Below, in pieces: positions 3,156 through 44,305 of a stretch of DNA of 64,000 bases (position 1 is its first letter; every line of letters starts with the position of its first letter). Made by a program: the position numbers and the translations under genes. The stretch is from the NCBI RefSeq assembly GCF_054482525.1, contig NZ_CM137006.1; one strand, 5' to 3'. The notes below the pieces were generated by a model. The model searched no databases. It was not told the origin of the DNA and worked only from the letters and a program-made list of their open reading frames with translations.

Positions 3156-3785
3156 ATGACCCGCACACTCAAGCCGTTAATTCTTAACACCGGCGCACTG
3201 GCGCTAACATTAATCCTGATTTATACCGGCATTTCGGCCCATGACAAACTCACCTGGCTGATGGAAGTGACACCGGTGATTATTGTCGTGCCGCTACTGC
3301 TTGCCACCGCTAAACGTTATCCGTTAACGCCGCTGCTCTATACGCTCATTTTCTTTCACGCCATCATCCTGATGGTCGGCGGGCAATACACCTACGCGAA
3401 AGTCCCCGTTGGTTTTGAGGTGCAGGAATGGCTGGGGTTGAGCCGTAATCCGTATGACAAGCTGGGGCATTTTTTCCAGGGGCTGGTGCCTGCACTGGTG
3501 GCACGAGAGATCCTTGTGCGCGGGATGTACGTTCGCGGACGTAAAATGGTGGCGTTTCTGGTCTGCTGCGTGGCGCTGGCGATAAGCGCGATGTATGAAT
3601 TAATCGAGTGGTGGGCGGCGCTGGCAATGGGCCAGGGAGCGGATGATTTTCTCGGCACCCAGGGCGACCAGTGGGACACGCAATCCGATATGTTCTGCGC
3701 GCTGCTTGGCGCATTAACGACGGTGATATTCCTCGCTCGCTTTCATTGCCGCCAGCTACGGCGCTTTGGCTTGATAACCGGATAA
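3156..3785 (+). CDS. yjdF: Inner membrane protein YjdF, 209 aa
   Basis: ORF with multiple hydrophobic segments; position between fumB and melB. Confidence 0.8.
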   Translation: MTRTLKPLILNTGALALTLILIYTGISAHDKLTWLMEVTPVIIVVPLLLATAKRYPLTPLLYTLIFFHAIILMVGGQYTYAKVPVGFEVQEWLGLSRNPYDKLGHFFQGLVPALVAREILVRGMYVRGRKMVAFLVCCVALAISAMYELIEWWAALAMGQGADDFLGTQGDQWDTQSDMFCALLGALTTVIFLARFHCRQLRRFGLITG

Positions 3786-3923: not shown

Positions 3924-5345
3924 TCAGGCTTTCACATCACTCACTGCACCGACCGGAATATCAGCATGAACAGGCTCGGGCGGTACTTTGCGATATTTAT
4001 CCAGCAGATGGATCTGGATCCTGCGCAGCGTGTCACCATTGAGGCGATAGAAACGGAAGTAGAGAATCAGCGTTACCATGAAAAACAGAGTCGGTAGAGC
4101 AATCATAATAAACTGCATACCTAATAGGGCTTGCGTAGACTGTTCAACATTCGGTACATAGCCAATCATCCCTAACACAACCGCAATGAAAAAAGCCGCA
4201 AAGGCTGAACCGCCCTTCACCACCATAGTCTGCACGGAGTAAGCGATGCTTTCACAGCGTACGTGCAGTTTATATTCACCGTAATCAACGGTATCTGCCA
4301 CCATGATGACCTGTAATACCCAGAAAAGCGCCGTTCCCACATTCAGCAAGATACCCGCAATCACAATGAGGACGACGTTGTGATAGCTCATTAATGCCAT
4401 TAACAGGAGAACACCACAGCTTAACACCGGAAGAATAGATGCTCCGGCCCATAAAATGCGTCGGGATAATGATTTAACTAAGCGTGGGAAGAATACTAAC
4501 GTCACCAGATTAGCAGCTCCCGCATACGACAGATAATAGGGGAACAAATCCGCATCACCGATAACATATGAGAAATAATAGATAGCAAAGCCGGTAATAA
4601 TATTGCTGGCTACATTATAAGCAAGAGCCATACCCAAGAGGCATGAAAGCTGATCGTTTTTATAAATAAGCGCAACGATGGCTTTAAGTGTCAGATGGCT
4701 TCCTTCAGCAGACGGTTGATTGTCTGACGAAAAGACTTCATGCACATTGCGCAGAGTGATGATGGTTGAAACAATAAAAAAGGCGATCAGTACCAGAGTG
4801 AACATCTGAAAGCCAAATCCCCGATCGCCACCGCCGACATAATTAACAAATGGTAGCGTCACACCTGCCGTAACAAAGCCCGCCAGACTGGCAAAAAAAC
4901 GCGGATAAGGAACCAGTTGTTCGCGCTCACGTTTATCGAGCGTTATGGTTGGAACCAGCGACCAGAAGGGAATATCCATAATGGTGTAAGTCATGCCCCA
5001 GAGGATGTAGGTCACGCAAACAAAGACAATCTGAGTAGTACCTTCAAACAGATGCGCACTAAAGAGGAGAAATAAGATTACAGAGTTTGCCAACGTACCG
5101 ATCAGGATCCAGGGTTTGAACTTACCCCATCGCGATCGCGTAGCATTTACAATCCATCCCATAATCGGATCGTTAATAGCATCCCAGATCCTCGCCACCA
5201 GAAACAAAGTACCGACCAAACCCACAGACAGCCCGACGACATCGGTGTAGTAATACATGAGGTACATATACACAATGCCGATCGCAAAATCCTTCCCGAA
5301 CGCTCCAAATCCATAACTGAGTTTTGTAGTCATTGAAATGCTCAT
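3924..5345 (-). CDS. melB: Melibiose:cation symporter MelB, 473 aa
   Basis: Translation begins [20 protein letters not shown]…; start chosen at the second in-frame ATG of the listed ORF to match MelB length. Confidence 0.92.
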
Positions 5346-5447
5346 AGGGTATCGGGTCGCTGTTACCAACGCCCGCCTTCTGTTATTGGTATCGTCAGAG
5401 GTGTGCGCCGGAATAAATCCCCCGGCGCAGTAGCGTTTAGTCGCGTT

Positions 5448-6803
5448 TTAACGGTGCAACCAGCCTGGTAGCCAGTCGCCGTGGGCGGCAATCAGGTCGT
5501 CAACAAGAGCATATATTTCGTCAATGCCCAGCACGGCGGCAGTATGCGGGTCCATCATCGCGGCGTGGTAAACACGGTCGCGATTTTCCGTAAGAATGGC
5601 TTCGGTCAGCAGCGTCTGTACGTTGATGTTGGTTTGCATCAGAGCGGCCAGATGCGAAGGTAGCGTACCGACTTTGGTCGGCTGAATGCCATTAGCATCA
5701 ACCAGACAGGCCACTTCCACACAACATCCTTGTGGCAGGTTATCAATCAATCCATCGTTACGGACGTTGCCGTAAATCACACTCGGCTCGCCAGTCCAGA
5801 TAGCGTTCATGATTGTGCTGGCATATTCCCGTGACGGTTTAATATCAATCCGAGAGGCGTTCTTATACTCCTCCAGCTCTTTATGCCAGTTCGCCAGCTG
5901 CTCGACGCAGCGTTTCGGGTACTCATCCAGCGGTACTTTATAACGCTCAATCAAATCCTCACGACCTGGCTTAATAAACCACGGTGTGTACTCAGCAAAA
6001 TGTTCTGACGATTCCGTGACGAAGTAGCCCAGCTTTTTGAACATTTCATAGCGCACAATATTCTGGCAGCGAGTATTGCCATGAATATTCGGCTTCGGTG
6101 CCTGCCCTGCTTCATAAGCCGCCAGCAGTTCCGGGTAGAGATTCACGTAACTGCCGTCGGCGGTTTTGCGCTCCAGTTCCAGGTAAAACGCCATATGGTT
6201 GATACCTGCGCAACGGTAACGCAGCGTAGCCGGGTCGATATTGAGGTCACGCGCCAGCTCTTCCGCCGTTCCCTGCACCGAATGGCACAGCCCTACCTGT
6301 TTGATATGCGGATAGCGGGCATACATCGCCCAGGTATTCATCGCCATTGGGTTAACGTAGTTGAGCATAGTGGCATCGGGGCAAACTTCCGTCATGTCCT
6401 CGCAAATTTGCCACAGGTGCGGAATGGTACGTAGCGCGCGCATAATACCGCCCGGCCCCAACGTATCGGCAATGGTTTGTTCCAGACCATGCCGCTTACA
6501 GACCTCGAAATCAGTCACCGTGCAAGGTTCATAACCGCCAATCTGAAATGCCACCACGACAAAATCGGCATCCTGTAAGGCTTCTTTCTGTTGGATGTGG
6601 CAGGTGATTTTGCCGCTGGCCCCTGCTGAATCCATCAGCTTGCGCACCACAATATGCGACTCTTCCAGGCGGGTGGGATCAATGTCCATCAGGGCAATAT
6701 GCGCCGTTTTCAGCGCCTCGCGATGGAACACATCACCAAGAATATTTTTAACGAAAATCGTCGAACCAGCGCCGATAAATGTAATTTTGGGTGCAGACAT
6801 CAT
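5448..6803 (-). CDS. melA: Alpha-galactosidase MelA (NAD/Mn-dependent family 4 glycosidase), 451 aa
   Basis: Full ORF; N-terminal Rossmann motif (KITFIGAGST); upstream of melB in same orientation. Confidence 0.93.
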   Translation of the reverse strand: MMSAPKITFIGAGSTIFVKNILGDVFHREALKTAHIALMDIDPTRLEESHIVVRKLMDSAGASGKITCHIQQKEALQDADFVVVAFQIGGYEPCTVTDFEVCKRHGLEQTIADTLGPGGIMRALRTIPHLWQICEDMTEVCPDATMLNYVNPMAMNTWAMYARYPHIKQVGLCHSVQGTAEELARDLNIDPATLRYRCAGINHMAFYLELERKTADGSYVNLYPELLAAYEAGQAPKPNIHGNTRCQNIVRYEMFKKLGYFVTESSEHFAEYTPWFIKPGREDLIERYKVPLDEYPKRCVEQLANWHKELEEYKNASRIDIKPSREYASTIMNAIWTGEPSVIYGNVRNDGLIDNLPQGCCVEVACLVDANGIQPTKVGTLPSHLAALMQTNINVQTLLTEAILTENRDRVYHAAMMDPHTAAVLGIDEIYALVDDLIAAHGDWLPGWLHR

Positions 6804-6936: not shown

Positions 6937-7663
6937 AAATTACCTGAAAAGCAGAGTTTTCGGCCTCAGAATGCTCGGATGGTCCCCTCGCCTCTCTGGG
7001 AAGAGAGTGAAAACCGTGCTCCCACTCGCAGTCATCTTCCTGCACTCCTGCCATAATTCTGATATTCCAGGAAAGAGAGCCATCCATGAATACAGATACG
7101 TTTATGTGCAGCAGCGACGAAAAACAGACCCGCAGCCCGCTGTCGCTGTATTCGGAATACCAGCGGATGGAGATTGAGTTTCGCGCACCGCATATCATGC
7201 CCACCAGCCACTGGCATGGTCAGGTCGAAGTGAATGTGCCTTTCGATGGCGATGTGGAATACCTGATCAACAATGAAAAAGTGAGTATCAATCAGGGACA
7301 TATCACGCTGTTCTGGGCCTGTACACCGCACCAACTAACAGATACCGGAACCTGTCAGAGCATGGCGATTTTTAATCTGCCGATGCATCTGTTTCTCTCC
7401 TGGCCGCTGGATAAAGACCTGATTAACCACGTCACTCACGGCATGGTGATCAAATCACTGGCGACACAGCAACTTAGCCCGTTTGAAGTGCGCCGCTGGC
7501 AGCAGGAATTGAACAGTCCGAACGAGCAAATTCGCCAGCTCGCCATTGATGAAATTGGCCTGATGCTCAAGCGATTTAGCCTCTCTGGCTGGGAACCGAT
7601 TCTGGTCAATAAAACCTCGCGCACACACAAAAACAGCGTCTCGCGCCATGCGCAATTTTATGT

Positions 7664-7676
7664 CAGCCAGATGCTG
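7664..7676. repeat. Left copy of 13 bp target-site duplication (cagccagatgctg) of IS4
   Basis: Identical 13-mer found at 9103..9115 directly abutting the other IS4 end. Confidence 0.85.
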
Positions 7677-9102
7677 TAATGCCAGTCAGTTAAGCAACTG
7701 ACTGGCTCTTTTTCGGGGCTGTGGGGTATTTCCAGGGCCTCTCCTTTACCACTCTCGGGAAGGCCCTTTCCCTTCTTGTCGGTAATTTCACAAGTTGTCC
7801 CATACTTGCAAGATCGCGCATCAGCTCCGGTATACGTCCCGGTGAAGCGCCCTGCAATGTCATCAGCATTCTCATCACCATTCCGCATGATTCTGAGAAA
7901 CTCAGTTGATTCGGCCAGTAACCTTTCAGATGTTCCGCCATTTTAATCATCTGATATCTCACCAGATTATAAGCCAGTAAGACACCCCACAGCTCTTGCT
8001 CCACAAGCTCCGGTTTTTTACTTCTCAGCGTCAGCCTGCTCAGTTGCATCGTCTGTTTTATCTCCCTGTATCCCAGTTCGATTTCCCAGCGATGACTGTA
8101 CAGATCCGCCATTTCTCCTCCGGGGAAGCGCATGGCGTCCGTCATCGACGTCAGCAGATGGCAGACTTTTCCTTTGCGCGTCACGGTCAGCAGGCGGGCT
8201 GTCACTTCATTTCCCAGTCCCGGCCACTTTTTTCGTGCCTGCGGGCTGGTTTTCAGCTTCACCAGATGATCGCCTTTACCCAGTTTTCTGATCTCTTCAT
8301 ATTGCGCTCCCTTTCTGAGAGGTATCATCCAGTGGCGGTGTTCTCCCGCCAGGCTCCAGGCATTTAACAGTCCCAGTGAGTAATAACCTTTATCCATTAA
8401 CGTCAGAGTGTTATCGCCGGTTTGTTCTATAAGTTGCTCAGCAAGCTCATTTTCGCTGTTCTTCATCGTGCCGAAGGCTGCAGCCGTCAGCAGATGGCTG
8501 GTCAGTTCCATCTGGCAGACCATTTTGACCTGCGGGTAGAGCGCCGGGTTCCCGGCATGTGTCTGGCGGGGGAAGGCTGCATCGTTCTCTAGTGTATCCG
8601 GTGTGCGCCAGAACACACCATCGATGGCCAGCAGGGTCAGGCCGCACCAGTGCGGATGCGGCGTGGCGTTATGCCAGAGCTGCGCTGTTTTCGTGAACAC
8701 GCGGCGGACAGCCTCACTTCCCAGGCGCTGGCGGGCCTGAATAACGGCACTGGGGGCAACGAAGGGGCGATTGCCCGGCAGCATGATGTCCAGGCGATTC
8801 ACAATCTGGTGAAGAGGTTCTTTACGCTCAAGCGCCATGCCAACAATACACCAGACCATCATTTCGAGGGGAAGACGGCGCTTGCGTAGCGTTACAGTAC
8901 CTGATTCGGCAAGGCAACGAGAGATGAGTTCGGGGTCGAGGTAATCCCCCAGAGAAGTCAGTGGGTTACGCAGAGAATCGTAACGGGATACCAGATCAAG
9001 AGCCTGTCCAATGTGCATAAAAAAATCCGGAAACAAGTGAGCGTTTCCGGATTCTTACACAGCCACTGGATCGGTCAACTGATCCTTAACTGATCGGCAT
9101 TA
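7677..9102 (-). mobile_element. IS4 insertion sequence, complete (1426 bp) with imperfect terminal inverted repeats (taatgcc…/…ggcatta)
   Basis: Length and terminal repeats; internal transposase ORF; flanked by 13 bp direct repeat cagccagatgctg. Confidence 0.9.
7690..9018 (-). CDS. insG: IS4 transposase (InsG-like, DDE family), about 442 aa
   Basis: ORF inside IS4; translation matches IS4 transposase; start placed at MHIGQALD… (listed ORF begins 6 codons earlier). Confidence 0.85.
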
Positions 9103-9115
9103 CAGCCAGATGCTG
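9103..9115. repeat. Right copy of 13 bp target-site duplication of IS4
   Basis: Identical to 7664..7676. Confidence 0.85.
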
Positions 9116-9631
9116 GGCTTTATTGCCGAAAACTATGATCAGGCGCTGACCATCAACGATGTGGCTGAGCACGTCAAACTTAACGCCAACTATGCAATGG
9201 GGATATTCCAGCGGGTCATGCAATTGACGATGAAACAGTACATTACCGCGATGCGCATCAACCACGTTCGCGCGTTACTGAGCGATACCGATAAAAGTAT
9301 TCTCGATATTGCCCTGACGGCAGGCTTTCGTTCGAGTAGCCGTTTTTACAGCACGTTCGGCAAATATGTCGGCATGTCACCGCAACAATACCGCAAACTT
9401 AGCCAACAGCGCCGCCAGACGTTTCCCGGCTAAAGACGATATCAGTATCAGCCAAAAAAATAGTTTAGCCGTCGATAATAAGCAGTGAAAATAATTTAAA
9501 ATAATCACATAACATATTGTTTATAAAAACAAATATTTCAAAAATGTTTGTTTTTCACGCGCTTTACAGCCCGAAAAGGCCGGAAGATACTTGCCCGCAA
9601 CGAAGATTCCTTCATAACCGGGTAAGCAATG

Positions 9632-19925: not shown

Positions 19926-20804
19926 TTACACCAAATTTACAGAGAAGATTTCCTCGACCATTGCCCCCGCCAGACGCTGCGCTGAACAGAGTCGTGGCAT
20001 CCCCAGTGCGACAGTTCGCCAGCGTTGGGTCACTGACCAGCAAACGGGTTGTTTATCTGCCGTGGACCACTTTCCCAGCCAACTTAAAAAATCAGCATGA
20101 TCCCCGCCCGTCGAAACGGTCGAAGAGGCAAACCACTGATGGTAATAGTGACGCGTGGTCGGGGCCGCATTGATACTCTCTGCCAGATGTTGTGTCGCTT
20201 TCACGCGCAAATCACCCAGCAACAACGCCACCGCTTGCGGGCTTCCCAGACGGCAGGCATCGCCAAATCCCCCCCAGCGCAACTCCTCCAGAACGATAAA
20301 ACAGCGCCCAGGCAACGACCAGGCGTTATACGCCCCAGCACGCCAGCGGGTAAAAATTTGCTCGCTCTGTTCACCCGCCTGCACCAGTAGGCCTCGTTGC
20401 GTTAACGCCTTTTCCTTCCAGCGACAACGGGCTGAAAACCACTCATACAAGGCGGCAATTTGCTGGGGGAGCTCAGGGAAAGCAGAGTGCTGGCGGTGAT
20501 CCATTTTTTGCAGCAGCGCCAGATGTTGCGCGATCTGCGTCAGCGCCAGATGACCGGGATCCAGCATCGAAGCCAGTTTTTCCACCAATGTCAGACGCAG
20601 GCTAAGCGGCGCATTTAACATCCCGCCGTTCGTCCATGCCTGAAGCTGCACACGCGCAAGAAGTTCCTGCATCAGTCGTTCACGAAACTGCTGCTGATGG
20701 GGTTGTGGATGGCGGACATCATCGCCCTGCGCCAGATCCACTAAAAAGCGCGGATGAACCGACTCCAGCACGCGACCGGGGCCGTCCAGTAACGTCTTGG
20801 TCAA
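19926..20804 (-). CDS. yjcZ: Uncharacterised protein YjcZ, 292 aa
   Basis: ORF immediately downstream of crfC, 4-bp overlap with crfC stop; matches K-12 yjcZ by position and length. Confidence 0.8.
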   Translation of the reverse strand: MTKTLLDGPGRVLESVHPRFLVDLAQGDDVRHPQPHQQQFRERLMQELLARVQLQAWTNGGMLNAPLSLRLTLVEKLASMLDPGHLALTQIAQHLALLQKMDHRQHSAFPELPQQIAALYEWFSARCRWKEKALTQRGLLVQAGEQSEQIFTRWRAGAYNAWSLPGRCFIVLEELRWGGFGDACRLGSPQAVALLLGDLRVKATQHLAESINAAPTTRHYYHQWFASSTVSTGGDHADFLSWLGKWSTADKQPVCWSVTQRWRTVALGMPRLCSAQRLAGAMVEEIFSVNLV

Positions 20805-23029
20805 TATCGTTCTGCCGTGAAAAGTGTTTGAATATCATCGCGTAACAGCTGAGCGTCGGTGTAAATCCAGCTGTGAGTCATCACAGCCTGCTGCAATTGC
20901 TGCTGCATCAGCCTGACCACCGATTCATTTTGTTGACGCAGAGCCAGGCTTTCGCGTAAACGCGTCTGTAATTCCGTCAAACATGAAGCGAACTCAGCGA
21001 AAAAAGTATTCATGCCTGCCGTAACAGATTCATCGACCTGCTCTGCCAGAACTTTAGCCATTTGTTGGCAATAAAGATCGACTTCTGCGCTTAATGCTCG
21101 TTGCAACACACTGTAATCAACCGTCTCTGTCGGGGATTTCTCATTTCCCCGTCCCCAGTCGGGCTGATTCAACCAGCGCGAAAAAGTCTCACGCACAACG
21201 CCTAAACGCGTGCTCTGCTCGTCCGTTGCTTCCTGGCGCGAAATGACTTCACTGAACAGCTGGCGAGTGTTGAAGTGGGGAACTGCGCCGTGAAAAACAG
21301 GAAAATGAAACCCAGGACGAAACCCTGACTCGCTCAATTCCATTTTGATTTGTTGCTCAATGGGCCGAATAACATCGGTTAACACCCGGCAAAGGGTGGA
21401 TTCCAGCTCGGCAAAACGCAGCGTAAAGTCGCGACTGATGGTGTTCTGCGCCGTCTGTAACAGTGTCTCACAGCGGGTACGAATCTCGCTTAACGGCTCC
21501 GAATCATCCTGAAACAAGGCGGCTAACTGCGCATTCAGCGCATCTTGCTGTTGACGCAGAAAGTGGTTGGCGGAGGTCAGGGCCAGCTCGATTTCATGTT
21601 TAATCTCGCCGCTCACCTGCGCCTGATTGAGTTGCAATAGCTGCAAACTTTCTTCGATCTGATGGATATTTTGCCGCAATTGTTCACAAGCGACGTTTAA
21701 CCCGTGCGCACGAAAATCCAGGTATTCCCGCGCCTGCTGCGCGTAATTCAACAGTTTATGCGCGGCAGATCGCAGAGCATACAACGAGGCGTTAGCGTAA
21801 GCGGCATGAAGCAACGCCTGAATTGGCTGGGCGAACAGCGAATCTTCCCACAACTGATCGGCAGCATGACGAATATGTTCGAGGTCCGCCAGATCGGCAT
21901 GACGCCAGCGCCTGCCGAGCGCGGCATGGGCAAAATCTTCCACCCAGCGTTGTTGCTCTGGCGGTGGTAACTTACCGTTGTTGGCTAACTCATGGCGCGC
22001 CCGATTCGCCAGGTAGCCCCACATCGACGACACCGGAAATATCTGCTGTGGCGTAATACAGCCTTTCATCAGCGTCCCGGAAATCAGTGCCCGCACCTGG
22101 TCGGCGTCGTCACTGTTACGATCCTGTTGATCGAACTTATTGACCAGCACATACAGCGGCACCGATTGCCCCACCGCCAAAATCGCCTCACGGACCTCTT
22201 CATCGGAGATCGATTTCAGTTGCGTATAATCCAGCACCGCCAGTACCGCCGAGGCGCGTGCCAGCTGCTGGTTAAGCATTTTTTGCAGATGCGGTTGCCC
22301 GGCTTCATTTGGCCCAGGGGTATCCAGTAACGTCAACTGACCGGGATAACTCTCCAGCCCCGCCAGATGGACAAACTCCACTTCAATCACGGGAATATAC
22401 TCAATGGCGGCGTAAGCAGAAAAAGGAAAATCGACGTCCAGCGCCTTCGCCAGTCGCACCAAATCATTCAAACTTTTCAGACAATGAAAAATAGGCTGGG
22501 CACCCAGATAATATTTTTCGAAAGCGACGCCATTTTCGATCCGCTGCATAAGCGCACGCATATCTTTATCTATTTCCAGCACATCGGTCAGATGCTTAAT
22601 ATCGCAATCACACAGGCGCTGTTGTAATTTTTGAATTAAACAATCGATTGGCGCGACATGTGAAAAATGCAGTACCGGTTCCTTTTGCCCGGGCGTATGG
22701 CGAATAAGCGTCGGCAGCGCAGTCATTGGGCGATTACGATTAGGCAAAACCTCCGTACCAACAATGGCATTAATGGTAGTTGATTTCCCTGCTTTCATGG
22801 TACCGACAATCGCCAGCACCATTTCCAGTCGGGAAATTTTACGCAACTCATTATTCAGCATCGCGTGACGTTCGGCGATATTAGGCTGACTCCAGGGTAA
22901 AGCCAGTTGTGGCGCATCGTCTCCGGGGACAGAGAGAGGCATTTTTTCCAGTAACTGCAACTGTTGGCGAGAAAGCTGTAACAGGCGTTCAGCCTCCTGA
23001 CTTAACTCATACAGGGTCTGTGTGTACAT
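20801..23029 (-). CDS. crfC: Dynamin-like GTPase CrfC (YjdA), 742 aa
   Basis: Large ORF with N-terminal P-loop (GTMKAGKST) GTPase domain; position between phnA and yjcZ. Confidence 0.85.
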   Translation of the reverse strand: MYTQTLYELSQEAERLLQLSRQQLQLLEKMPLSVPGDDAPQLALPWSQPNIAERHAMLNNELRKISRLEMVLAIVGTMKAGKSTTINAIVGTEVLPNRNRPMTALPTLIRHTPGQKEPVLHFSHVAPIDCLIQKLQQRLCDCDIKHLTDVLEIDKDMRALMQRIENGVAFEKYYLGAQPIFHCLKSLNDLVRLAKALDVDFPFSAYAAIEYIPVIEVEFVHLAGLESYPGQLTLLDTPGPNEAGQPHLQKMLNQQLARASAVLAVLDYTQLKSISDEEVREAILAVGQSVPLYVLVNKFDQQDRNSDDADQVRALISGTLMKGCITPQQIFPVSSMWGYLANRARHELANNGKLPPPEQQRWVEDFAHAALGRRWRHADLADLEHIRHAADQLWEDSLFAQPIQALLHAAYANASLYALRSAAHKLLNYAQQAREYLDFRAHGLNVACEQLRQNIHQIEESLQLLQLNQAQVSGEIKHEIELALTSANHFLRQQQDALNAQLAALFQDDSEPLSEIRTRCETLLQTAQNTISRDFTLRFAELESTLCRVLTDVIRPIEQQIKMELSESGFRPGFHFPVFHGAVPHFNTRQLFSEVISRQEATDEQSTRLGVVRETFSRWLNQPDWGRGNEKSPTETVDYSVLQRALSAEVDLYCQQMAKVLAEQVDESVTAGMNTFFAEFASCLTELQTRLRESLALRQQNESVVRLMQQQLQQAVMTHSWIYTDAQLLRDDIQTLFTAERY

Positions 23030-34576: not shown

Positions 34577-35335
34577 ATGAGCCTGACCCTCACACTTACT
34601 GGCACTGGCGGCGCACAGGGCGTTCCGGCATGGGGCTGCGAGTGCGTGGCCTGCGCCAGAGCGCGGCGCTCACCGCAGTATCGCCGCCAGCCATGCAGCG
34701 GCGTCGTGAAGTTTAACGACGCGATCACCCTGATCGACGCCGGGCTGCACGATCTCGCCGATCGCTGGTCGCCCGGATCGTTCCAGCAGTTTTTGCTGAC
34801 GCACTACCATATGGATCACGTGCAGGGGCTGTTTCCGCTGCGCTGGGGTGTGGGCGATTCGATCCCGATCTACGGCCCGCCGGATGAACAGGGCTGCGAC
34901 GATCTGTTTAAACATCCGGGCCTGCTTGATTTCAGCCACACGATGGAACCGTTTGTGGTGTTTGATTTACAGGGGTTACAGGTCACGCCCCTGCCGCTCA
35001 ACCACTCAAAACTGACCTTCGGTTATCTGCTGGAAACGGCACACAGCCGGGTGGCGTGGCTGTCTGACACCGCTGGCTTGCCGGAAAAAACGCTGAAATT
35101 TTTACGCAATAATCAGCCGCAGGTAATGGTGATTGATTGCAGCCACCCGCCGCGCGAGGATGCACCGCGTAATCACTGTGATTTAAATACCGTGCTTGCG
35201 CTGAATCAGGTTATCCGCTCGCCACGGGTGATTCTGACCCATATCAGCCACCAGTTTGATGCGTGGCTGATGGAAAACGCACTGCCGTCGGGGTTTGAGG
35301 CGGGGTTTGATGGGATGGAGATTGGGGTGGCGTGA
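34577..35335 (+). CDS. phnP: Metallo-beta-lactamase-fold phosphodiesterase PhnP, 252 aa
   Basis: HxHxDH motif ([10 protein letters not shown]). Confidence 0.9.
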
Positions 35336-35490
35336 TGGGAGGGAATGTGCGCGCTGGCCCCCTCACCCTAACCCTCTCCCCAGAGGGGCGAGGGGACCGA
35401 TTGTGCTCGATATTGAATATTGCGCTGGTTTTCTCCCTCGCCCCATTGGGGAGAGGGCCGGGGTGAGGGGCGATGCCTGCTCCATACCCA
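35336..35490. repeat. GC-rich palindromic intergenic repeat, inverted and module-permuted relative to 26335..26452
   Basis: Shares cccctcaccc / ccctctcccc / gggagaggg / gtgctcgat modules with the phnD-phnE repeat. Confidence 0.7.
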
Positions 35491-35493
35491 ACA

Positions 35494-35823
35494 TCAACGC
35501 CCATACTCATCTTCCATTCTCCGCTCTTCATCTTCTAGCTGCCGACGCTCCTGATCCAGCTGGCGCTGGCGATCGTCCAGCTGCCTGCGGCGATCTTCAA
35601 ACTGGCGGCGGCGATCGTCATATTGTCTGCGCCGATCGTCGTTCACTTCACGCTGCCAGCCGTCGTCGCGCGAATCTTCATAGTCTCGCCCACGGTCAGG
35701 GTTATAAGCGTCGTTAATCGCCTGCTGAATATTGCCAATGGTGTCGTCGATAATATCGGCCTGGGCCGGAACGGTGGACAGCGTGAGCAGGGTGAATAAA
35801 AGAAATAGCGGAAAGCGTTTCAT
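35494..35823 (-). CDS. yjdP: Small secreted Arg/Asp/Glu-rich protein YjdP, 109 aa
   Basis: Signal peptide MKRFPLFLLFTLLTLSTVPAQA followed by charged low-complexity RRRQ repeats. Confidence 0.8.
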   Translation of the reverse strand: MKRFPLFLLFTLLTLSTVPAQADIIDDTIGNIQQAINDAYNPDRGRDYEDSRDDGWQREVNDDRRRQYDDRRRQFEDRRRQLDDRQRQLDQERRQLEDEERRMEDEYGR

Positions 35824-35891
35824 TAGCCAACCTCAAAAAGAAACTCTATCCACATTAGTCATTACTCATCCATGCAAGTAGTGGATGAATC

Positions 35892-36226
35892 TCAATTTCT
35901 CCGCTGCTCTATTGCCGTAATCGCCTCCACGCGTTGTTGATGACGACCGCCTTCGTACTGCGCGCCCAGCCACGCATCCACAATCATTTTTGCCAGTTCG
36001 AGGCCAACCACTCGTGAACCAAAAGCCAGTGCAACTTCACTGGCGTAATGCGGATAATCAGTACGCTCTGACGACCTGGTTTCTTTATCAATCCCCTCAC
36101 TCATTGACCATGAATAAAAGGCTGGCACAGCAACGCAGAATCCTGCGGTGCCAGCGACATGACCGCCCATTGCTCCGGTACGTTTTTTAATAAAAAACAC
36201 CGGTTGCATTGATTAATTGTGCTCAG
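35892..36226 (-). pseudogene. rpiB: rpiB (ribose-5-phosphate isomerase B) remnant: C-terminal about 67 codons recognisable, internal segment missing, 5-prime part unrelated
   Basis: Translation ends …AFGSRVVGLELAKMIVDAWLGAQYEGGRHQQRVEAITAIEQRRN which I recognise as the RpiB C-terminus; …SSERTDYPHYAS… is also present, but the segment between (with the catalytic Cys) is absent and the N-terminal 38 codons do not resemble RpiB. Confidence 0.5.
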
Positions 36227-36241
36227 GGTAATGACTCCAAC

Positions 36242-36745
36242 TTATTGATAGTGTTTTATGTTCAGATAATGCCCGATGACTTTGTCATGCAGCTCCACCG
36301 ATTTTGAGAACGACAGCGACTTCCGTCCCAGCCGTGCCAGGTGCTGCCTCAGATTCAGGTTATGCCGCTCAATTCGCTGCGTATATCGCTTGCTGATTAC
36401 GTGCAGCTTTCCCTTCAGGCGGGATTCATACAGCGGCCAGCCATCCGTCATCCATATCACCACGTCAAAGGGTGACAGCAGGCTCATAAGACGCCCCAGC
36501 GTCGCCATAGTGCGTTCACCGAATACGTGCGCAACAACCGTCTTCCGGAGACTGTCATACGCGTAAAACAGCCAGCGCTGGCGCGATTTAGCCCCGACAT
36601 AGCCCCACTGTTCGTCCATTTCCGCGCAGACGATGACGTCACTGCCCGGCTGTATGCGCGAGGTTACCGACTGCGGCCTGAGTTTTTTAAGTGACGTAAA
36701 ATCGTGTTGAGGCCAACGCCCATAATGCGGGCAGTTGCCCGGCAT
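36242..36745 (-). CDS. insB: IS1 InsB frame, 167 aa (expressed as InsAB-prime transposase by -1 frameshift)
   Basis: Translation matches IS1 InsB; overlaps insA 3-prime end around the ttaaaaaactc slippery motif. Confidence 0.9.
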
Positions 36746-36939
36746 CCAACGCCATTCATGGCCATATCAATGATTTTCTGGTGCGTACCGGGTTGAGAAG
36801 CGGTGTAAGTGAACTGCAGTTGCCATGTTTTACGGCAGTGAGAGCAGAGATAGCGCTGATGTCCGGCGGTGCTTTTGCCGTTACGCACCACCCCGTCAGT
36901 AGCTGAACAGGAGGGACAGCTGATAGAAACAGAAGCCAC
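36664..36939 (-). CDS. insA: IS1 InsA, 91 aa
   Basis: [43 protein letters not shown]… zinc-finger/HTH protein of IS1. Confidence 0.92.
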
Positions 36940-37238
36940 TGGAGCACCTCAAAAACACCATCATACACTAAATCAGTAAGTTGGCAGCATCACCTGTGCT
37001 CAGTATTTGCCGAAGTACAATATATATAATAAATATATAAAACACCTCATATTATTTACAGAGATAATAAATTCGCGTACTTTTCCCTCTTCAGCACAAA
37101 TGCCTAATAAAGTGGCGCGTTCAGCTCACACTTCTACTTATTAAAGTCGCAATTTCCCAATTATGATAACGCCAGCTTTAAATGACGTATTTTGCATGGA
37201 TTACATATTTACGACATAAATGATAAATGGAGATTTAT

Positions 37239-39224
37239 ATGAATAACTCTCGGTTATTCCGTTTGAGCAGGATTGTTATTGCGTTAACTGCCGCCAGCGG
37301 CATGATGGTAAATACCGCTTACGCAACAGATGAAGCGAAAGCCGCCACTCAATATACCCAACAGATTAATCAGAATTACGCCAAATCATTACCTTTTAGC
37401 GATCGTCAAGATTTTGACGATGCCCAGCGTGGATTTATCGCTCCGCTGCTGGATGAAGGTATTCTGCGTGATGCTAACGGCAAAGTTTACTACCGCGCAG
37501 ACGATTACAAATTTGATATTAATGCCGCTGCGCCGGAAACCGTAAACCCCAGCCTGTGGCGTCAGTCGCAAATCAACGGTATTTCTGGCCTGTTCAAAGT
37601 CACCGATAAAATGTATCAGGTGCGCGGCCAGGATATCTCTAACATTACGTTCGTTGAGGGCGAGAAAGGCATTATTGTTATCGACCCGCTGGTGACGCCG
37701 CCTGCCGCAAAAGCCGCACTTGATCTTTACTTCCAGCATCGTCCGCAAAAACCGATTGTTGCTGTGATTTACACCCACAGCCACGCCGACCATTATGGCG
37801 GTGTGAAAGGCATTATCTCTGAAGCGGATGTTAAATCCGGCAAAGTGCAGGTGATCGCTCCGGCAGGCTTTATGGACGAAGCCATCAGCGAAAACGTGCT
37901 GGCGGGTAACATCATGAGCCGCCGTGCGCTCTACTCTTACGGTCTGTTACTGCCGCACAACGCGCAAGGCAACGTGGGCAACGGCCTGGGCGTGACGCTG
38001 GCAACCGGCGACCCGAGCATTATTGCACCGACTAAAACTATCGTCAGAACTGGCGAGAAGATGATTATCGACGGCCTGGAGTTTGACTTCCTGATGACTC
38101 CGGGTAGCGAAGCGCCAGCCGAAATGCACTTCTATATTCCGGCCCTGAAAGCCCTGTGTACCGCCGAGAACGCCACGCATACCCTGCACAACTTCTACAC
38201 TCTGCGCGGCGCGAAAACCCGCGATACCAGCAAGTGGACCGAGTACCTGAACGAAACGCTGGATATGTGGGGTAACGACGCGGAAGTACTGTTTATGCCG
38301 CACACCTGGCCGGTCTGGGGCAATAAGCATATCAATGATTATATTGGTAAATATCGCGATACTATCAAGTACATTCACGACCAGACCCTGCACCTGGCGA
38401 ACCAGGGCTACACCATGAATGAAATCGGCGACATGATTAAGCTGCCGCCTGCGCTTGCCAATAACTGGGCCAGCCGCGGCTATTACGGTTCTGTCAGCCA
38501 CAACGCCCGCGCGGTGTATAACTTCTATCTTGGCTATTACGACGGTAACCCGGCTAACCTGCATCCATATGGTCAGGTGGAGATGGGTAAACGTTACGTG
38601 CAAGCTCTGGGCGGTTCTGCCCGCGTCATCAACCTGGCGAAAGAAGCGAACAAGCAAGGTGATTATCGCTGGTCGGCAGAACTGCTGAAACAGGTGATTG
38701 CCGCCAACCCTGGTGACCAGGTCGCGAAGAATCTGCAAGCGAATAACTTTGAACAGCTGGGCTATCAGGCCGAGTCCGCCACCTGGCGCGGTTTCTACCT
38801 GACCGGCGCGAAAGAGCTGCGCGAAGGGGTGCATAAATTCAGCCACGGCACCACCGGTTCCCCGGACACCATTCGCGGAATGTCGGTCGAAATGCTGTTC
38901 GACTTTATGTCCGTTCGCCTCGATAGTGCGAAAGCCGCGGGTAAAAATATCAGCCTGAACTTCAATATGAGCAACGGCGATAACCTCAACCTGACGCTGA
39001 ACGATAGCGTGCTTAACTACCGTAAAACGCTGCAACCTGAAGCCAACGCCTCTTTCTACATCAGCCGTGAAGATCTTCACGCCGTGCTGACCGGACAAGC
39101 CAAAATGGCGGATCTGGTAAAAGCGAAGAAAGCCAAAATTATTGGCAATGGCGCGAAACTGGAAGAAATTATTGCCTGTCTGGATAATTTCGATTTGTGG
39201 GTGAATATCGTAACCCCAAATTAA
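37239..39224 (+). CDS. yjcS: Metallo-beta-lactamase-fold alkyl/aryl-sulfatase YjcS, 661 aa
   Basis: Signal peptide, [10 protein letters not shown] metal-binding motif, C-terminal SCP2-like region; start at MNNSRLF. Confidence 0.88.
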
Positions 39225-42809: not shown

Positions 42810-44305
42810 TCAATCGTCAACTTTCACGTCTGCTGTTGTGCAGCATTCTCGGCAGCACGACGCTGATTTCCGGCTGTGCCCTGGTACGTAAGGATTCTGC
42901 ACCTCATCAACAGCTCAAACCGGAACAAATCAAACTGGCCGATGATATTCATCTTGCCAGCTCCGGCTGGCCGCAGGCGCAGTGGTGGAAACAACTCAAT
43001 GACCCGCAGCTGGATGCGCTGATCCAACGGACGCTAAGTGGTTCACACACCCTCGCCGAAGCGAAACTGCGGGAAGAAAAAGCGCAGTCGCAGGCCGATT
43101 TGTTAGATGCCGGTTCACAGTTGCAGGTGGCCGCGTTAGGGATGCTCAACCGACAACGTGTCTCGGCGAACGGCTTTTTAAGCCCTTATGCGATGGATGC
43201 GCCAGCACTGGGTATGGACGGGCCGTACTATACGGAAGCCACAGTCGGTTTGTTTGCCGGACTGGATCTTGATTTGTGGGGTGTGCATCGCTCAGCGGTT
43301 GCCGCCGCCATTGGCGCGCATAATGCCGCGCTGGCAGAAACCGCAGCAGTAGAGCTATCGCTGACCACGGGCGTAGCGCAGCTTTATTACAGTATGCAGG
43401 CCAGCTATCAGATGCTCGATCTGTTAGAACAAACACGCGATGTGATTGATTACGCGGTGAAAGCGCACCAGAGTAAAGTGGCGCACGGTCTGGAAGCGCA
43501 CCAGAGTAAAGTGGCGCACGGTCTGGAAGCGCAAGTGCCTTTCCACGGCGCGCGGGCACAGATTCTGGCGGTCGATAAACAAATTGCTGCCGTTAAAGGG
43601 CAAATCACCGAAACGCGAGAATCTCTGCGTGCATTGATTGGCGCGGGAGCCAGCGATATGCCGGAGATCAAACCGGTGGCATTACCGCAAGTCCAGACCG
43701 GCATTCCGGCGACACTCTCTTATGAGTTGCTCGCCAGACGCCCGGATCTGCAAGCCATGCGCTGGTATGTTCAGGCGTCATTAGATCAGGTGGATTCCGC
43801 GCGGGCGCTGTTCTATCCGAGCTTTGATATCAAAGCGTTTTTCGGCCTGGATTCTATCCACCTGGATACCTTATTCAAAAAAACCAGTCGCCAGTTCAAC
43901 TTTATCCCAGGTCTGAAATTGCCGCTGTTTGACGGTGGACGGTTGAATGCCAATCTCGAAGGCACTCGCGCCGCCAGCAACATGATGATTGAACGTTACA
44001 ACCAGTCAGTGCTGAATGCGGTGCGCGACGTTGCCGTCAACGGCACGCGTCTGCAAACGCTCAACGACGAGCGAGAGATGCAGGCTGAACGCGTGGAAGC
44101 AACGCGCTTCACCCAGCGCGCTGCCGAGGCCGCCTATCAACGCGGCTTAACCAGCCGCTTACAGGCCACCGAAGCCCGGTTGCCAGTGCTTGCCGAGGAG
44201 ATGTCATTACTGATGCTGGACAGCCGCCGGGTGATCCAAAGCATTCAGTTGATGAAATCGCTGGGCGGCGGGTATCAGGCAAGTCCCGTCGTCGAGAAAA
44301 AATAA
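42806..44305 (+). CDS. mdtP: Outer membrane efflux factor MdtP (TolC-like), 499 aa, containing an 11-residue tandem duplication
   Basis: Lipoprotein signal (LISGCAL); OMF family; internal repeat HQSKVAHGLEA x2. Confidence 0.88.
   Translation: MINRQLSRLLLCSILGSTTLISGCALVRKDSAPHQQLKPEQIKLADDIHLASSGWPQAQWWKQLNDPQLDALIQRTLSGSHTLAEAKLREEKAQSQADLLDAGSQLQVAALGMLNRQRVSANGFLSPYAMDAPALGMDGPYYTEATVGLFAGLDLDLWGVHRSAVAAAIGAHNAALAETAAVELSLTTGVAQLYYSMQASYQMLDLLEQTRDVIDYAVKAHQSKVAHGLEAHQSKVAHGLEAQVPFHGARAQILAVDKQIAAVKGQITETRESLRALIGAGASDMPEIKPVALPQVQTGIPATLSYELLARRPDLQAMRWYVQASLDQVDSARALFYPSFDIKAFFGLDSIHLDTLFKKTSRQFNFIPGLKLPLFDGGRLNANLEGTRAASNMMIERYNQSVLNAVRDVAVNGTRLQTLNDEREMQAERVEATRFTQRAAEAAYQRGLTSRLQATEARLPVLAEEMSLLMLDSRRVIQSIQLMKSLGGGYQASPVVEKK
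43461..43533 (+). repeat. Perfect 33 bp tandem duplication (aagcgcaccagagtaaagtggcgcacggtctgg x2, plus 7 bp of a third unit) inside mdtP
   Basis: Read directly from sequence; in-frame. Confidence 0.95.

Follow-up and report, generated by a model that had tools for sequence, protein, structure and literature searches.

In E. coli K-12, the genes of this part of the chromosome run in the order yjdP, rpiB, alsR, alsB, alsA, alsC, alsE, alsK, yjcS, which is also the order given in the initial annotation of the DNA studied here. The D-allose genes are not kept by all strains. PCN033 was reported to lack alsBACEK (PMC4578781), and E. coli W, also als-less, is unable to catabolise allose (PMC3032704). 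As for the insertion sequence IS1, target duplications of 8-9 bp are the norm, an A6C motif acts in its frameshifting, and a weak promoter overlaps in part with the end termed IRL (PMC12428005).

We analysed a stretch of 64 kb (64,000 nucleotides, hereafter the window) from contig NZ_CM137006.1. Here, yjdP and yjcS are separated by a short remnant of the missing block and by one IS1. We consider it very probable (roughly 0.93) that this represents a recent and simple transposition of an IS1A-type element into the AT-rich spacer of an old, widespread als-less allele, with little or no phenotype. Both the loss of als in this lineage and the element itself were already known. Only the place of this IS1 copy, in a single strain, is new.

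Structure of the IS1 element

Direct reading of positions 35200-37800, together with a script, revealed a complete IS1 of 768 bp at 36227-36994. The element and its immediate flanks are composed of the following features.

36218-36226, no strand: left copy of the 9-bp target-site duplication TGTGCTCAG (script)
36227-36994, minus strand: intact IS1 of the IS1A type (767/768 match to K-12 IS1A)
36242-36745, minus strand: open insB frame, giving InsAB' via a -1 frameshift (NCBIfam, 143.7 bits, cut-off 100)
36664-36939, minus strand: insA, 91 aa, which encodes the repressor and the N-terminal portion of the transposase (intact ORF)
36682-36690, minus strand: TTAAAAAAC (A6C), the programmed -1 frameshift motif (motif present)
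36960-36987, minus strand: promoter-like site CTGCCA-16-TATGAT, in part overlapping IRL and pointing into IS1 (consensus scan)
36995-37003, no strand: right copy of the 9-bp target-site duplication TGTGCTCAG (script)

This copy has each testable defining feature of IS1. The family norm is ~768 bp with imperfect inverted repeats of ~23 bp, and the window element has 768 bp and ends that match IRR (GGTAATGACTCCAACTTATTGAT, at the left) and IRL (ATCAGTAAGTTGGCAGCATCACC, as complement, at the right end on the yjcS side). Its insA and insB are joined by a -1 frameshift at the A6C motif, and its duplication falls within the 8-9 bp range. In terms of protein profiles, InsA accounts for positions 1-81 of the IS1 transposase model NCBIfam NF033558 and InsB for 75-199. 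Only one base in 768 is changed relative to K-12 IS1A, at position 507 in the window orientation.

Copies 100% identical to this IS1 are common on E. coli chromosomes and plasmids, where they are annotated as “IS1-like element IS1A family transposase”. The window copy is probably active in transposition, because its sequence is intact and its insertion recent.

The transposase genes lie on the minus strand and are transcribed away from yjcS, with the IRL end facing that gene. CTGCCA-16-TATGAT is the sole sigma-70-like match in a scan of 35800-37350, and its position agrees with the weak promoter described for IS1 (PMC12428005).

Target site

The two copies of TGTGCTCAG are identical at 9/9 positions and the match breaks at the 10th base. 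Such a match at fixed positions has a chance of ~4e-6. The 9-mer has no occurrence in the 64-kb window beyond these two flanking copies, and it is single-copy in the relatives with an empty site. An intact 768-bp IS1 with a direct repeat had been proposed in the initial annotation, and we confirm it, the repeat being perfect on both sides.

The target is poor in GC, with 29% over the site and 50 bp on either side (the lowest 1.4% of 109-bp windows) against 53% for the whole window. The spacer upstream of yjcS has 31% GC. IS1 favours AT-rich targets. This preference probably explains where the element landed.

Organization of the yjdP-yjcS junction

To the left of the junction are phnM-phnP, a repeat-rich spacer and then yjdP, and to the right yjcS, followed by ytcA and mdtNOP. 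Between them, and apart from the IS1, we found remnants of both edges of the missing block.

35494-35823, minus strand: yjdP, the left neighbour, a DDRRRQL repeat protein of 109 aa (NCBIfam NF041443, 147 bits against a cut-off of 90; RefSeq-annotated in PCN033)
35892-36029, minus strand: 3' block of rpiB, last 45 codons and stop, 99% identical to K-12 (blastn; BLASTP to RpiB residues 107-149)
36020-36099, minus strand: middle block of rpiB (~residues 29-53), 90-92% identity, 90% to K-12 (blastn against K-12 and CFT073)
35892-36209, minus strand: fusion ORF of 105 aa, a pseudogene remnant, with its ATG 17 bp from the left end of IS1 (ORF list)
36108-36159, plus strand: 3' end of alsK (last 6 nt) and alsK terminator hairpin in a diverged form (79% identity), which mark where the old deletion ends on the right (blastn to K-12, CFT073 and AMSCJX03)
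36160-36226 and 37004-37014, no strand: junction-specific segment of 78 nt, with an AT-rich hairpin and the IS1 target (no match in als+ alleles)
37015-37238, plus strand: yjcS upstream region common to als+ strains, 92-94% identity (92% to K-12), intact 3' of IS1 (blastn against K-12 and CFT073)
37239-39224, plus strand: yjcS, an intact alkyl sulfatase gene of 661 aa (ORF list; start codon as in the RefSeq annotation of PCN033)

The two rpiB blocks are joined via an in-frame internal deletion of 159 bp between the imperfect repeats CAA(A/C)AGCCAG. Next to them, ~8 nt without homology (about 36100-36107) mark the joint of the old deletion, as resolved by blastn alignment to K-12 and CFT073. 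Beyond the joint, the remnant of the alsK terminator hairpin is still predicted to fold, at -22.8 kcal/mol versus -21.6 in K-12. The whole interval had been described initially as a 335-bp rpiB remnant. An rpiB remnant is indeed present, as two blocks that span 208 bp (35892-36099), while the rest is composed of diverged alsK terminator and junction-specific DNA.

The 78-nt segment has no counterpart in the als+ alleles that were compared, K-12 and CFT073 among them, and is kept in the als-less strains PCN033, O111:H- 11128 and EF5-18-41. As for its origin, an exact scan of 100,044 species-representative genomes with the 23-mer GACATGACCGCCCATTGCTCCGG gave zero matches, and an exact match is unlikely to survive divergence between species.

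The IS1 target is inside this segment, at ~120 bp from the joint left by the old deletion. Between the IS1 and the yjcS ATG (37239) there are 244 bp, of which 235 bp follow the right copy of the 9-mer. This corrects the earlier value of ~230 bp.

Distribution of the als-less junction and order of events

Without the IS1 and one of the two 9-mers, the junction measures 1430 bp, and PCN033 and eight other genomes carry this sequence uninterrupted and with 100% identity. With a coverage of at least 80%, the IS1-free als-less junction is present in 1567 of 5426 complete E. coli genomes, including PCN033, SCU-102 and 19KM1776. The alsK-alsR block of K-12 is found in 3370-3404 of the same 5426. Three states of the yjdP-yjcS slot are common: als+ (~62%), the old als-less remnant (~29%) and, for the rest, other arrangements such as OI167.

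The als-less breakpoints are alike in D-type strains (PCN033, EF5-18-41) and in the B1 strain O111:H- 11128, with few SNPs. These shared breakpoints, together with the decayed pieces of rpiB and of the alsK terminator, show that the deletion is old and of single origin. The opposite polarity, with the als-less allele as ancestral and als gained later, was rejected, as the allele holds decayed fragments of rpiB and of the alsK terminator.

The nearest relatives of the window are PCN033, SCU-102 and 19KM1776, with ~100% identity over 24 kb, and the IS1 site is empty in all three. Compared with PCN033, we found 12 SNPs in ~62.6 kb and three structural differences, namely the window IS1, an IS4 in melR and a 33-bp tandem duplication in mdtP. 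Furthermore, no IS1 occupies the exact site of the window copy in any of the 5426 complete E. coli genomes. The IS4 in melR carries a 13-bp duplication and is as clean an insertion as the window IS1.

The empty site in near-identical relatives makes this a very recent insertion into a junction that was already als-less. The IS1 is younger than the very shallow split from PCN033, SCU-102 and 19KM1776, and is probably recent in absolute time as well. That IS1 entered an als-less junction was also the view of the initial annotation, and it gains support from the clean 9-bp duplication and from the 1567 IS1-free junctions with a single 9-mer. An adjacent deletion mediated by IS1 leaves an end of the element on non-contiguous DNA and no duplication. 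The window has contiguous flanks and a perfect duplication.

In the order of events that we propose, the deletion of rpiB-alsR-alsBACEK would have come first, long before IS1. The transposase would then have cut the two strands of TGTGCTCAG with a 9-bp stagger, and repair would have copied the 9-mer. The IS1 took nothing away, and the Als- and RpiB- state would come from the older deletion. If neutrality is assumed, the insertion most likely had little or no phenotype, because the flanking genes and the 235 bp next to yjcS are intact and the transcription of IS1 is directed away from that gene.

In terms of use, the insertion is a clean lineage marker that, together with the IS4 in melR, separates the strain from PCN033, SCU-102 and 19KM1776. 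IS elements are the fastest-changing part of an otherwise near-identical chromosome. The insertion has little importance beyond strain typing and is a routine strain-specific polymorphism.

Loss of the D-allose genes

A tblastn search of the 64-kb window with the K-12 Als proteins and RpiB found only ABC-ATPase paralogues at 25-30% identity and the rpiB remnant. The rpiR-alsBACEK block, noted as missing in the initial annotation, is therefore absent from the window apart from that fragment.

In als-less strains, RefSeq names the 105-aa ORF “RpiB/LacA/LacB family sugar-phosphate isomerase”. Its scores are far below the curated cut-offs of TIGR01120 (77 versus 138.65 bits) and TIGR00689 (61.7 versus 88.3), and it matches only the C-terminal part of the isomerase profile, over about 40 positions. 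In a BLASTP alignment, only RpiB residues 29-53 and 107-149 have a counterpart in it, and residues 1-28 and 54-106 are missing. We take Asp9, His10, Cys66, Thr68 and His99 to be the catalytic residues in the E. coli RpiB structure, and these would all be in the missing segments. By BLASTP, the N-terminal and central segments of RpiB, presumably the catalytic ones, are absent from the ORF. This partial alignment and the low scores identify the ORF as a pseudogene remnant. For annotators, the point is that an isomerase name is given in RefSeq to an ORF without the segments in which the catalytic residues would lie.

Neither alsB nor the rpiB core was found elsewhere in 18 sampled als-less genomes, PCN033 included. 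For this, a chimeric query of junction, alsB and rpiB core was used, which has 1 place in each of the als-less genomes (18/18) and 3 in als+ genomes. Its total of 12,605 places agrees with non-overlapping classes.

From the window and its relatives, the strain is predicted to be unable to catabolise D-allose and to lack RpiB, as was first proposed in the initial annotation. The prediction is supported by the lack of als genes in the window and in the als-less relatives, by the defective 105-aa ORF and by the reports on PCN033 and E. coli W (PMC4578781, PMC3032704). For the proposed explanation as a whole, the absence of als and rpiB is read within 64 kb of the strain's genome.

Other IS1 events near yjcS

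Several other genomes carry an IS1 close to yjcS, with or without a duplication. Orientation is given relative to the window IS1.

EF5-18-41: simple insertion, duplication AAAACACCT, same orientation
fM51a: simple insertion, duplication AAACACCTC, opposite orientation
AMSCJX03: simple insertion, duplication CAGGTACA, same orientation
64EVA: simple insertion, duplication GACAGGTAC, opposite orientation
F5: simple insertion, duplication AGTAAAAC, same orientation
PSS-12: simple insertion, duplication CGCCAGCTT, same orientation
PF9285: insertion within a gene, CTGACTTTA, inside alsK, opposite orientation
BY63: insertion within a gene, AAGTTTAC, inside yjcS, opposite orientation
2021CK-01361 and MS 115-1: deletion without duplication, yjcS-ytcA lost, same orientation
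YJ6 (IS1B): deletion without duplication, alsB' to alsK lost, same orientation
IS1X2 clade of 5 genomes including MIN9: deletion without duplication, rpiB-alsRBACEK lost, opposite orientation

In other genomes, 7 or more additional IS1 events, independent of each other, place one end within ~90-140 bp upstream of yjcS. Within ~1 kb of the yjcS start, ~22 genomes have an IS1, where ~12 per kb would be expected by chance (from 59,363 chromosomal IS1 places over genomes of roughly 5 Mb; the median is about 11 places per genome). The idea of the whole yjcS neighbourhood as an IS1 hot spot was dropped on these numbers. The notable enrichment is modest and limited to an AT-rich stretch of roughly 100 bp, with clonal inheritance making a formal test unreliable.

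The occurrence of both orientations and of several events that destroy yjcS favours target preference in dispensable AT-rich DNA over activation of yjcS. As a counterpoint, the repeated IS1 strikes on this stretch of roughly 100 bp in other lineages could reflect selection and not target preference.

MIN9, YJ6 and 2021CK-01361 have an IS1 end on non-contiguous DNA and no duplication, as expected for an adjacent deletion mediated by IS1. IS1 can thus create als deletions at the yjdP-yjcS locus, but the window copy did not do so.

Alternative explanations

The insertion could instead be adaptive, with yjcS expression changed either by separation from silencer or enhancer DNA or by a fusion promoter that takes its -35 from IRL, and with the repeated strikes being convergent. 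We regard this as improbable. Beyond the clustered IS1 ends, fusion promoters are known from IS1, according to the passage of PMC9330008 that cites Prentki 1986. In vitro, NtrC and the RpoN-holoenzyme bind somewhere in the K-12 alsK-yjcS spacer, as seen by gSELEX and gel shifts (PMC8743547). By analogy, a spacer of 31% GC may also be the kind of DNA that H-NS is known to bind.

On the other hand, the insertions are scattered over many positions and lie in either orientation, and their local excess (~22 against ~12 per kb) is modest. In addition, yjcS is destroyed or deleted in BY63, YJ6 (where its upstream region is removed), 2021CK-01361, MS 115-1 and GF153 (by ISVsa5). No outward consensus promoter crosses the junction of IRL and flank, where the scan returned only the inward site that overlaps IRL, and no link between yjcS regulation and H-NS was found in the literature searched.

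By eye, the best candidate for a fusion promoter was TTGGCA-17-TATTTG, rejected for a -10 hexamer without T at position 6. A search by eye for a sigma-54 promoter (TGGCAC-N5-TTGCA) in 37004-37238 gave TGGCGCGTTCAGCTCA and TGACGTATTTTGCA, both rejected for a wrong GG/GC spacing.

It is conceivable, as far as the sequence can tell, that the insertion affects yjcS expression to some degree, as suggested in the initial annotation. A broader form of this idea, in which the AT-rich stretch of ~100 bp would be a selected IS1 target and the insertions would reprogramme yjcS by release from silencing or from a region bound by NtrC and sigma-54, seems to us quite improbable. If it were true, the repeated and independent insertions upstream of yjcS across phylogroups would amount to convergent regulatory evolution and not to target preference.

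As for the assembly, a misplaced repeat is a very improbable source of the window IS1. IS1 is multi-copy, with a median of about 11 places per genome, and the exact site is without IS1 in every genome of the collection, both of which could be expected of an artefact. However, a misplaced repeat would not give an insert of element length with an exact 9-bp duplication of a single-copy sequence, and the IS4 in melR, with its 13-bp duplication, is equally clean in the same window.

Lastly, that IS1 itself made the als deletion, by adjacent deletion or by IS1-IS1 recombination, is already effectively refuted and has almost no probability left: such events do happen at this locus, in the IS1X2 clade (MIN9), YJ6 and 2021CK-01361, but without duplications, whereas the window IS1 is bounded by a perfect 9-bp duplication, lies ~120 bp from the joint (about 36100-36107) and not with its end on it, and the same breakpoints occur with a single 9-mer and no IS1 in 1567 genomes of several lineages, near-identical relatives included.

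Comparison with known systems

In terms of the element, the reference is IS1A of K-12 MG1655 (NC_000913.3, 19796-20563), which has the same 768 bp, IRL and IRR, the same insA/insB/A6C layout and the same 8-9-bp target duplication (PMC12428005). The two are one base apart, and the site of the window copy is unseen in 5426 complete E. coli genomes.

In terms of the junction, PCN033 (phylogroup D; NZ_CP006632.1, 4596159-4597588) and 1566 other genomes have the rpiB fragments, the remnant of the alsK terminator and the 78-nt segment as in the window. All of them differ from it by the lack of IS1 at this site.

MIN9, YJ6 and 2021CK-01361 with MS 115-1 also have an IS1 in the AT-rich DNA that precedes yjcS, with a different outcome, since there the element made the deletion. 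Unlike the window, the IS1X2 clade has the 3' end of rpiB fused to the yjcS upstream region with no duplication. YJ6 has a truncated alsB fused, via IS1B, 12 bp before the yjcS ATG, and 2021CK-01361 has lost yjcS-ytcA beside the IS1, neither of which is seen in the window.

Finally, in E. coli O157:H7 the yjdP-yjcS slot is filled by OI167, the lyxose/mannose island lmvK/lmvR-lmuKAIZYX, instead of the allose genes (PMC10128022). In contrast to the window junction, OI167 is a gene-rich replacement island with no remnant and no IS1. Its presence in the slot shows that the sugar-utilisation locus between yjdP and yjcS is polymorphic, with three alleles or more.

Differences from PCN033 or K-12

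The window departs from PCN033 or from K-12 at four further places:

7677-9102: 1426-bp insertion with a 454-codon open frame on the minus strand, missing from PCN033
20801-23029, minus strand: crfC, an intact open reading frame of 742 codons
35336-35493: phnP-yjdP spacer, in which a G+C-rich repeat occurs as inverted copies, GGGGAGAGGG...GGTGAGGGG
43463-43528: tandem duplication of the 33-bp unit GCGCACCAGAGTAAAGTGGCGCACGGTCTGGAA inside mdtP

The first of these is bounded by a perfect 13-bp duplication, CAGCCAGATGCTG, at 7664-7676 and 9103-9115, and breaks melR, which spans 7086-9433. From its size, its ends and the length of this duplication we take the insertion to be IS4-like. The melR product is the activator of melAB, and with the gene interrupted the strain is therefore predicted to be melibiose-negative.

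The duplication in mdtP adds 11 in-frame codons, and a single copy of the unit is present in PCN033 and most other genomes. SCU-102 and 19KM1776 align to the window in one unbroken piece, and on this alignment the duplication appears to be common to all three. As for crfC, the RefSeq record of PCN033 reports a pseudogene with an internal stop, a difference from the window that may be due to one of the 12 SNPs between them. The phnP-yjdP spacer has 12 bp more than in K-12, within one copy of the repeat.

Naming of the rpiB remnant

The 105-aa open reading frame at 35892-36209, a fusion of rpiB to the alsK terminator region (WP_001183282.1 / WP_001183287.1), is labelled by RefSeq in als-less genomes as “RpiB/LacA/LacB family sugar-phosphate isomerase”. 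This name is misleading, because RpiB residues 1-28 and 54-106 are missing and the profile scores fall below the NCBIfam cut-offs.

The yjdP-yjcS locus in other genomes

Insertion sequences were found at this locus in other E. coli genomes, listed here with the numbering of each locus extract:

533-1300 (L019, MIN9): IS1X2
533-1300 (L015, YJ6): IS1B
4780-5547 (L003, 2021CK-01361): IS1
4173-5381 (L010, GF153): ISVsa5, an IS4-like element, interrupting yjcS

The rpiB-alsRBACEK block was deleted a second, independent time, by IS1, in a clade of five genomes: MIN9 (NZ_CP069682.1), EC21Z-137, CT29, QDFD216 and 50EVAW. Here the last 9 nt of rpiB are fused via IS1X2 to the yjcS upstream region, and no target duplication surrounds IS1X2 in these five. 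Two further IS1 deletion derivatives are found. In YJ6, IS1B links a truncated alsB with the position 12 bp upstream of the yjcS start codon. In 2021CK-01361 and MS 115-1 the IS1 sits 46 bp rightward of the window's site and has deleted both yjcS and ytcA. GF153 is itself an als-less strain, and its broken yjcS is a further sign that this gene is dispensable.

Approximately 455 of the 5426 complete genomes lack both the als block of K-12 and the remnant junction. In O157:H7 (F3113, extract L006, 1-7000), the yjdP-yjcS slot is filled instead by OI167 lmvK/lmvR-lmu, the lyxose/mannose island of O157:H7 (PMC10128022).
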